From sequence record PV648359: 64,000 bases of DNA. One strand, given 5' to 3'. This document shows, piece after piece, positions 33,196 through 34,112 of the stretch; the stretch's first letter is position 1; each line of letters starts with the position of its first letter. Below the pieces are notes generated by a model that did not search any database, was not told the origin of the DNA, and saw nothing but the letters and a program-made list of their open reading frames with translations. The position numbers and the translations under genes are program-made. Origin of the DNA: Escherichia phage LF82-1.

Positions 33196-33561
33196 TTAGA
33201 TATCGAATTCATTAAGAACTACATCAAAGATTGCTTCCAGGTGTTCAGGTTTAGCTCGGTTGCTCAGGATGTGACGAATCCAAGTTTTAACCAGAAGCTT
33301 ACGATTAACACCGTTCCAGCAAGGATGAGTACCTAAATCACGCTGACGGAAATCATCATCTAATGCAATTTTGAAGTTGGAACCTTCCATCGTGATTGAA
33401 ACCGTGATGCCATTTTCAAATCGCATATAAACGTAATTAGGAGTCATGCACTGTTCGATTTCACATACTGAACCATTTTTATGTTTCCATAAGCAAATAA
33501 CTTCAGAAGAACCAGCGATACCGTTAGAAACATATTTACGTTCGAAGTTGATGTAGTTCAT
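33196..33561 (-). CDS. hypothetical protein (tandem unit A)
   Basis: 121 aa from internal ATG; upstream region duplicated at 34005-34080. Confidence 0.5.
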   Translation of the reverse strand: MNYINFERKYVSNGIAGSSEVICLWKHKNGSVCEIEQCMTPNYVYMRFENGITVSITMEGSNFKIALDDDFRQRDLGTHPCWNGVNRKLLVKTWIRHILSNRAKPEHLEAIFDVVLNEFDI

Positions 33562-33635
33562 TTTATTCTCCAGATGTTTAAGTTGTTTGTTGGTACAGGT
33601 ATATAATAACATAACCTGTACCAAAGTAAACTGTT

Positions 33636-34004
33636 TTATGCAACTTTAATCCAATTGTCTAAATTTAAAACACCTTTGGCTTTCATTTTTTCGATCAGGT
33701 TATCTGCTGTAATGCGTCCATTTTGATACCATGTAACATCTTCAGAGTAACCAGTTTCTTCGTCAACATATGTTTCTGAACGAATTTTACCTGTAATAAT
33801 AGTTTTTAATTCGTATGTGTCACCTGTGAAAAAGTTTGCTAACACAATTTTCCAAGAGAAATCATCAGAAGGACCTTCAGGGGTCATACAACCTACGAAC
33901 TCAAATTGCTCTTTGTATAACATCCACTGGAATTCTTTAATTTCGATAGCTTTATAACCGTCGTGGTCTTTACATTTGATGTATGAGTTCAGATTGATTT
34001 TCAT
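33636..34004 (-). CDS. hypothetical protein (tandem unit B)
   Basis: 122-aa ORF; shares CMTP motif and upstream promoter architecture with unit A. Confidence 0.5.
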   Translation of the reverse strand: MKINLNSYIKCKDHDGYKAIEIKEFQWMLYKEQFEFVGCMTPEGPSDDFSWKIVLANFFTGDTYELKTIITGKIRSETYVDEETGYSEDVTWYQNGRITADNLIEKMKAKGVLNLDNWIKVA

Positions 34005-34112
34005 TTTGTTCTCCGGTTTGTTTTATTGATTAGGTGGTACAAGTCTATAGTAACACATCCTACAGGAGAGTAAACACTTTTTTTAAACTTTTTCTGCCCT
34101 AAACGCACAAAA

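Follow-up and report, generated by a model that had tools for sequence, protein, structure and literature searches.

What does it mean when two neighbouring phage genes of almost the same length are preceded by closely similar upstream regions? The question is raised by genes 30.7 and 30.8 of Escherichia phage LF82-1, which lie side by side on the minus strand of a 64,000-nucleotide (nt) stretch of sequence record PV648359 (hereafter the window). Gene 30.7 (33196-33561) encodes a protein of 121 amino acids (aa) and gene 30.8 (33636-34004) one of 122 aa, and both products contain the tetrapeptide CMTP. An earlier note on this DNA had correctly described the two open reading frames (ORFs) and their common motif; from these, and from the close alignment of the upstream regions 33562-33640 and 34005-34085, it had proposed a tandem duplication of an early transcription unit. 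We consider it highly probable, instead, that the locus carries two copies of a T4-type early promoter/leader cassette placed before unrelated genes, and that these cassettes also act as recombination sites, in the manner published as promoter-early stem-loop (PeSL) shuffling. Elements of this kind are already known, and the phage lineage that carries this one is well annotated.

The origin of the DNA can be narrowed down by comparison. Over bases 33100-34400, Escherichia phage LF82-2 agrees with the window completely (100% identity, equal coordinates), and RB69-like phages (Mosigvirus) with annotated genomes reach 98%, which points to an RB69-like (Mosigvirus) T4-type phage as the source of the window. 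In one annotated relative, OL960576, the matching stretch lies between rIII and the DNA ligase gene, with every gene on the minus strand. The order 30.9-30.8-30.7 is also that of T4, and the order 30.8-then-30.7 is widely kept among distant T4-like phages represented by IMG/VR loci.

Read on the coding strand, both cassettes run from an A-rich tract through GTTTAC, 17 nt ending in TGT, TA(C/T)TAT and a C/A-rich leader of 44-45 nt to GGAGAA, which is followed after 4 nt by the ATG. The candidate early promoter of 30.8, P30.8 (34047-34075, minus strand), has its -35 element GTTTAC at 34075-34070 and its -10 element TACTAT at 34052-34047, with the A-rich tract upstream; its Shine-Dalgarno sequence GGAGAA, read from the sequence, lies at 34009-34014 before the ATG at 34004, and GGAGAAnAAAATG upstream of 30.8 is kept in nearly all lineages compared. 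The corresponding P30.7 (33603-33631, minus strand) has GTTTAC at 33631-33626 and TATTAT at 33608-33603, and GGAGAA at 33566-33571, read in the same way and kept across lineages, precedes the ATG at 33561. This second cassette follows directly on the stop codon of 30.8 (33636-33638) and fills the space up to the start of 30.7. Both promoters thus combine GTTTAC, a spacer of 17±1 nt, TGn, TAnnnT and an A/T-rich UP element, the signature of T4-type early promoters, and both agree with the consensus that ten further units of the window share. Compared with the T4 early promoters reviewed by Hinton (2010, PMC2988021), in which UP, -35, TGn and -10 elements are joined by further regions of consensus, they show the same GTTTAC, 17-nt spacer, TGn, TAnTAT and A-rich tract and no substantive difference. 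The annotation of OL960576, moreover, lists P30.7 among the T4 early promoters. In T4, both 30.7 and 30.8 belong to the early class for RNA as well as for protein (PMC9697503, supplements 4 and 6), and together with the promoter sequences this expression of the orthologues suggests that P30.7 and P30.8 are used as early promoters in the present phage too.

How close, then, is the resemblance of the two upstream regions? Between 33550-33650 and 33993-34093 the alignment contains 70 invariant columns out of about 101, and a gapped global alignment of both regions is 70% identical (69/98), against 51.5% (standard deviation (sd) 2.6%) for shuffles of one partner and 50% (sd 2.9%) for random 96-nt windows of the same strand, with 62% as the top value of any control. 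The similarity of the upstream DNA is far beyond chance, and in this respect the close alignment seen earlier was borne out. The apt background for DNA of this kind is, however, formed by the other early promoters of the same genome and not by random sequence. At least 12 early units, each with a promoter, a ribosome-binding site and an ATG, are present in the window, and their consensus runs well past the -10 element (...cCTATCAAcAAcA..GAGGAAA...ATG); among 12 of them the pairwise identity averages 61% (sd 4%). When P30.8 and P30.7 were compared in anchored, ungapped blocks, 61 of 92 positions were identical; 40 of these 61 are consensus positions found in half or more of the other early promoters, while 13 are private to the pair, the highest number among all 66 pairs (mean 4.8, sd 2.6). 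The resemblance of both cassettes is therefore mostly generic, with a small genuine excess left over, so that the idea of a similarity beyond generic consensus holds for the modest private share and fails for the larger one. T4's own P30.8 and P30.7 cassettes are 59% identical, which is the generic level. Judged from the sequences, the two cassettes of the window appear to be related copies of one repeated element.

No such relationship was found between the proteins. BLASTP aligned gp30.7 and gp30.8 only over 8 residues around CMTP (E=0.20), and profile-profile comparison by hhalign returned a probability of 0.11%, or of 0.19% with enriched profiles (35 and 54 sequences from related loci); even the forced hhalign alignments leave the two CMTP motifs unpaired. 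Profile comparison was the very check by which the earlier note had proposed to judge the protein half of its claim, and that half did not survive it. The products fall into separate Pfam and PHROG families, gp30.8 into PF06019 (Phage_30_8, Pfam E=6.7e-44) and phrog_1507, and gp30.7, which is 94% identical to its T4 counterpart, into PF06919 (Phage_T4_Gp30_7, Pfam E=1.1e-51) and phrog_1582. When each of the two was searched against 5.8 billion proteins, it recovered its own Pfam family only and no cross-hits, and a fold search of BFVD with each model likewise recovered its own family only, the gp30.7 model being of low confidence. Using an alignment from which the T4 row was left out, AlphaFold2 predicted gp30.8 as mostly beta strands plus one helix, with a predicted local distance difference test score (pLDDT) of 93.5, and gp30.7 as six strands followed by helices, with a low-confidence pLDDT of 65. 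The gp30.8 model had no match with E below 0.5 in a fold search of the PDB, and neither family profile had a significant hit in sequence searches of the PDB; going by its model, gp30.8 may represent an uncharacterised fold. A remote homology based on the like N-terminal secondary-structure patterns of both proteins was considered and rejected, as the hhalign alignments had zero confidence and left the motifs unaligned. Both genes are conserved early genes of two families without assigned function, and a functional study of gp30.7 or gp30.8 was not found in the literature.

Could the pair nevertheless descend from a true tandem duplication of promoter plus gene, in which the genes diverged past recognition while the promoters stayed alike? 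The ORFs are same-strand neighbours of nearly equal size, their order is kept in distant T4-like phages, and the CMTP motif occupies almost the same position, residues 38-41 in gp30.7 and 39-42 in gp30.8; a common 4-mer at any position was obtained in 11% of shuffles and one in matching position (no more than 2 residues apart) in about 0.4%, a figure judged after the fact. In both models the motif lies at a turn between two beta strands, and both are beta-rich N-terminally and helical toward the C-terminus. Two of these likenesses do not hold across the families. The equal length is not kept, T4 gp30.8 having 110 aa and family members 116 to 140 aa. Among the 30.8 proteins C39, T41 and P42 never vary, whereas at this site the 30.7 family has YMTP in T4 and the majority of relatives, and distant members, without MTP, have YWDD, YWED or FWED; because T4 and most 30.7 relatives have YMTP, the sharing of CMTP rests on a recent Y-to-C change. 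The cassettes also differ in architecture, as a stem-loop is found in P30.7 only, and in T4 they resemble each other no more than early promoters in general do.

A positive control for what duplication looks like is available in the same window, where the adjacent ORFs at 49287-49649 and 49711-50097 (minus strand; 120 and 128 aa, beginning MKIGKTYIINP... and MEIGKSYIINP...) have the same layout, next to each other on one strand with an own early promoter each (-35 at 49711 and 50155). Their products are 58% identical over 90 aa (E=3e-33), whereas gp30.7 and gp30.8 are without similarity, and their promoters are 66% identical. This control pair represents true tandem paralogues, yet its promoters are no more alike than P30.8 and P30.7. 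Together with the profile comparisons, the separate families and the missing cross-hits, this makes a duplication of the whole unit highly improbable for 30.7 and 30.8. What stands of the original proposal are two adjacent units with their own promoters and related cassettes; the duplication of promoter plus gene does not. In T4-like genomes, similarity of upstream regions is no sign of gene duplication, as one long cassette is reused before many unrelated genes.

If the genes are unrelated, where does the private similarity of their cassettes come from? Footprints of recombination were sought in IMG/VR loci of related phages, 31 of them collected via gp30.8 and 30 via gp30.7 and denoted here by their locus numbers. 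The gap between 30.8 and 30.7 measures 73-83 nt or is enlarged by 0.5-1.1 kb of inserted extra ORFs. Compared with T4, the DNA homology of the window extends up to 34148, is gone over the 30.8 module and is back exactly at the -35 element of P30.7 (33631). The P30.8 cassette of the window is 71% identical to the P30.7 cassette of T4 and 56% identical to T4's P30.8. A second type of footprint is seen in L035-L038 and L055, in which a gp30.7 96-98% identical to that of the window stands beside a T4-type gp30.8 allele (about 2095-2424) that is 78% identical to T4 and about 40% identical to the window. Since homology between L035 and the window breaks at 33988 and 33630, only the 30.8 coding region between the cassettes has been replaced in the L035 type. 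A third is provided by L058 and L059 (IMG/VR contigs 3300045988_066482 and 2974754850_000001; L058 1345-2503 against L059 2360-2503), whose flanks are 96-98% identical on both sides while L059 is without about 1 kb comprising 30.8 and one ORF. One cassette precedes 30.7 in L059, and the two homology blocks overlap there by 83 nt. Such a hybrid single cassette is the expected product of recombination between direct repeats.

The leaders carry a further trace. In many lineages the sequence from -10 to ATG is lineage-specific and common to both cassettes of a genome, whereas the spacers differ: in L004 the leaders of P30.8 and P30.7 agree over all of 44 nt, in L025 at 39 of 40 positions, and the sharing is also clear in L016, L011, L014 and L008. 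Over 14 representative lineages, leader identity was 79% between the two cassettes within a genome and 67% between genomes or orthologous cassettes, whereas spacers had no within-genome excess (51% against 52%). In the window itself, TTGTACCA in the P30.8 leader (34035-34042, minus strand) resembles the right arm CTGTACCA of the P30.7 stem-loop, with the left-arm partner absent and no hairpin folding, and is thus an 'orphan arm'; in other lineages, too, the P30.8 leader follows the P30.7 right arm of the same genome.

Could these similarities result purely from convergence, namely from the demands that RNA polymerase and the ribosome place on a generic consensus of early promoter, leader and ribosome-binding site, with neither common descent nor exchange? 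The 40 consensus positions among the 61 identities speak for it, as do the generic similarity of the T4 cassettes and the known extension of the T4 early promoter consensus outside -35 and -10 (PMC2988021). Nevertheless we regard it as unlikely. Convergence accounts poorly for the 13 private positions, which place the pair first of 66 at about 3 sd over the mean, for the co-variation of leaders but not of spacers within 14 lineages, including leaders identical or nearly so in L004 and L025 between differing promoter spacers, for the hybrid single cassette at the L059 deletion, or for a 30.8 allele swap bounded by the cassettes. Recombination from cassette to cassette explains the modest excess better than duplication of the whole unit does.

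Several observations nonetheless weigh against our reading of the cassettes as shuffled repeats. By gapped identity, P30.8/P30.7 (70%) shares the top rank with three further promoter pairs, so that its pair-specific excess is modest. The observed leader excess was not attained in any of 20,000 permutations, a result that overstates independence, as the 14 lineages are phylogenetically related, and the within-genome similarity of leaders could partly be a genome-wide, lineage-specific consensus under selection rather than exchange. Furthermore, no U-tract follows the P30.7 stem-loop, which makes a terminator action uncertain, and Arbiol et al. (PMC2839356) call the cassettes of T-even phages 'PeSL-like' analogues and not homologues of the PeSLs of RB49 and phi1.

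The comparison with PeSLs, whose definition and role in the recombination of T4-type phages were given by Arbiol et al. 2010 (PMC2839356) and Comeau et al. 2014 (PMC4122927), is instructive all the same. Like PeSLs, the cassettes are intergenic, lie in a hyperplastic region, and unite an AT-rich tract, an early promoter, a stem-loop, a Shine-Dalgarno sequence and a start codon; both extend from an upstream stop codon in the AT-rich tract to the Shine-Dalgarno sequence and start codon. Like PeSLs, they flank small genes without assigned function and coincide with breakpoints of insertion, deletion and replacement, as found in the comparisons with T4 and L035, in L059/L058 and in the insert-bearing lineages. 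The stem-loop lies over the -10 element in P30.7, and in P30.8 the likeness is provided only by a hairpin 32 nt upstream of the -35; both placements, over the -10 and in the 'upstream AT-rich region', are among the five subclasses of PeSLs. Unlike the RB49/phi1 PeSLs, the cassettes have GTTTAC and not TTGACA, and an AT-richer stem without polyG/polyC tracts, and unlike the database orphans flanked by PeSLs, gp30.7 and gp30.8 are conserved families. The T-even analogues are T4 early promoters with weaker, AT-richer stems (PMC2839356, PMC4122927), a description that fits the present case.

The stem-loop of P30.7 (33592-33622, minus strand) is a perfect 9-bp inverted repeat, GGTACAGGT / ACCTGTACC, with arms at 33622-33614 and 33600-33592 that enclose the -10 element. 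As RNA it folds with -19.8 kcal/mol (z=-3.7) and its core with -18.2 kcal/mol (z=-7.4), and an annotated terminator of OL960576 overlaps the stretch matching it. A strong stem over the P30.7 -10 was found in 12 of the 14 representative lineages (-15 to -23 kcal/mol, z -5 to -8.6), with lineage-specific sequences such as GCTGATTGAGTGT/ACACTCAATCAGC, GGTGTAGGAGT/ACTCTTACACC and CTGAGGTTA/TAACCTCAG; as the sequences vary among lineages while the stem stays, the pairing is maintained by covariation. For P30.8, folding of the spacer, the -10 and the following 18 nt gave -5.5 kcal/mol (z=-0.5) and no stem-loop, and none of the 14 lineages had a stem there (mean z=-0.26).

How might such cassettes operate? 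Each would draw the host sigma70 RNA polymerase immediately after infection and would give the ORF that follows an unstructured leader with a strong ribosome-binding site. Only transcripts that start at P30.8 and read through would fold the P30.7 stem-loop, which would then stand as a hairpin at the 3' terminus of the message from 30.8, where it probably terminates, attenuates or stabilises the transcript; terminator activity has been shown for one stem-loop of RB49/phi1 (Arbiol et al., PMC2839356). As direct repeats of about 50-90 bp that bracket 30.8, the cassettes would at the same time offer homology to the phage recombination system, and we hypothesize that recombination between them homogenises the leaders and swaps, expands or deletes the 30.8 module.

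On this reading, the 30.9-30.8-30.7 site offers a clean natural example of published PeSL shuffling, with a bounded allele swap, a 1-kb deletion that has a hybrid cassette, and homogenised leaders. Beyond annotation, its importance is small. What stands out is gp30.8, an early protein that is well folded according to its model and is exchanged between otherwise near-identical phages. A bolder version would be that 30.8 is an actively mobile ORF cassette, with crossovers mainly between -10 and ATG by which alleles and extra ORFs are exchanged, lost or regained, and that gp30.8 is an adaptive host-interaction or anti-defence factor under diversifying exchange; this we offer tentatively, as a rather doubtful extension. 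As a side observation on the same protein, CxTPxGxSDDF is invariant among the aligned database homologues of gp30.8, and T4 gp30.8 deviates from it.

Some further features of the early promoters in the window deserve mention. Promoters were called by pattern scans and hairpins by RNA folding. A generic scan for sigma70 promoters and terminators found P30.7, shifted by one base and with TG before the -10, and missed P30.8 and the terminator-like hairpin after gene 30.9; with its TTGACA-based scoring and its threshold on the T-run, such a scan is unsuited to T4-type elements. P30.7 and P30.8 have 17-nt spacers and leaders of 44-45 nt, whereas in most other units of the window the spacer measures 18 nt and the leader 30-39 nt. 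Early leaders in the window (-35 at 50155, 41058, 37528, 26714, 11370 and others) have in common the motif (c)TATCAACAACA followed by GAGGAAA, in place of which GGAGAA is found at P30.7, at P30.8 and in the unit at 49287. GGAGAA includes GGAG, the motif at which the T4 endoribonuclease RegB cleaves certain early ribosome-binding sites. Most early promoters of the window contain an inverted repeat of which one arm lies in the spacer and its partner immediately past the -10, for instance on the minus strand in those with the -35 at 49287 (CAGGGTA/TACCCTG), 49711, 39652 (AGGAGC/GCTCCT), 37528 and 26714, so that a PeSL-type stem over the -10 seems common among them.

Upstream of 30.8 lies gene 30.9 (34136-34315, minus strand), an ORF of 59 aa belonging to phrog_1427 and gp30.9-like in OL960576, whose stretch is 94.8% identical to T4 DNA. 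It is followed by an intrinsic-terminator-like hairpin, GGGAGAC-UUCG-GUCUCCC and then UUUU (34108-34131, minus strand), which is stable in the RNA fold, is the hairpin mentioned above as lying 32 nt upstream of the P30.8 -35, and probably ends the 30.9 message. In the near-identical region of OL960576 a rho-independent terminator is annotated at the matching place (WebGeSTer, TransTermHP); that the simple scan did not report it may be explained by the about 4 T in its 8-base tail, against a cut-off of 5. At the other end of the module, 3' of 30.7, a hairpin GGGAGC-UUCG-GCUCCC (33172-33189, minus strand; RNA fold -13.1 kcal/mol, z=-2.85) matches a terminator annotation in OL960576. A search of 32400-34900 against Rfam at permissive thresholds found no known RNA family and returned two hits far under the gathering scores, both over the terminator hairpin.

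The hairpin after 30.7 leads directly into the ribosome-binding site and ATG of an ORF of 204 aa (32546-33160, minus strand; phrog_17531, no Pfam match), which sits where T4 has gene 30.6 (95 aa). This ORF has no DNA homology to T4, the homology ending at 33154, by the hairpin after 30.7, and restarting at 32491; it looks like another replaced module of the same hyperplastic region. Further away, the stretch of OL960576 that corresponds to the window region by the dCMP deaminase gene (35540-36121) carries, adjoining cd, a host-like metabolic gene for a Tyr-sensitive DAHP synthase (phospho-2-dehydro-3-deoxyheptonate aldolase; locus L001, 6020-7012).

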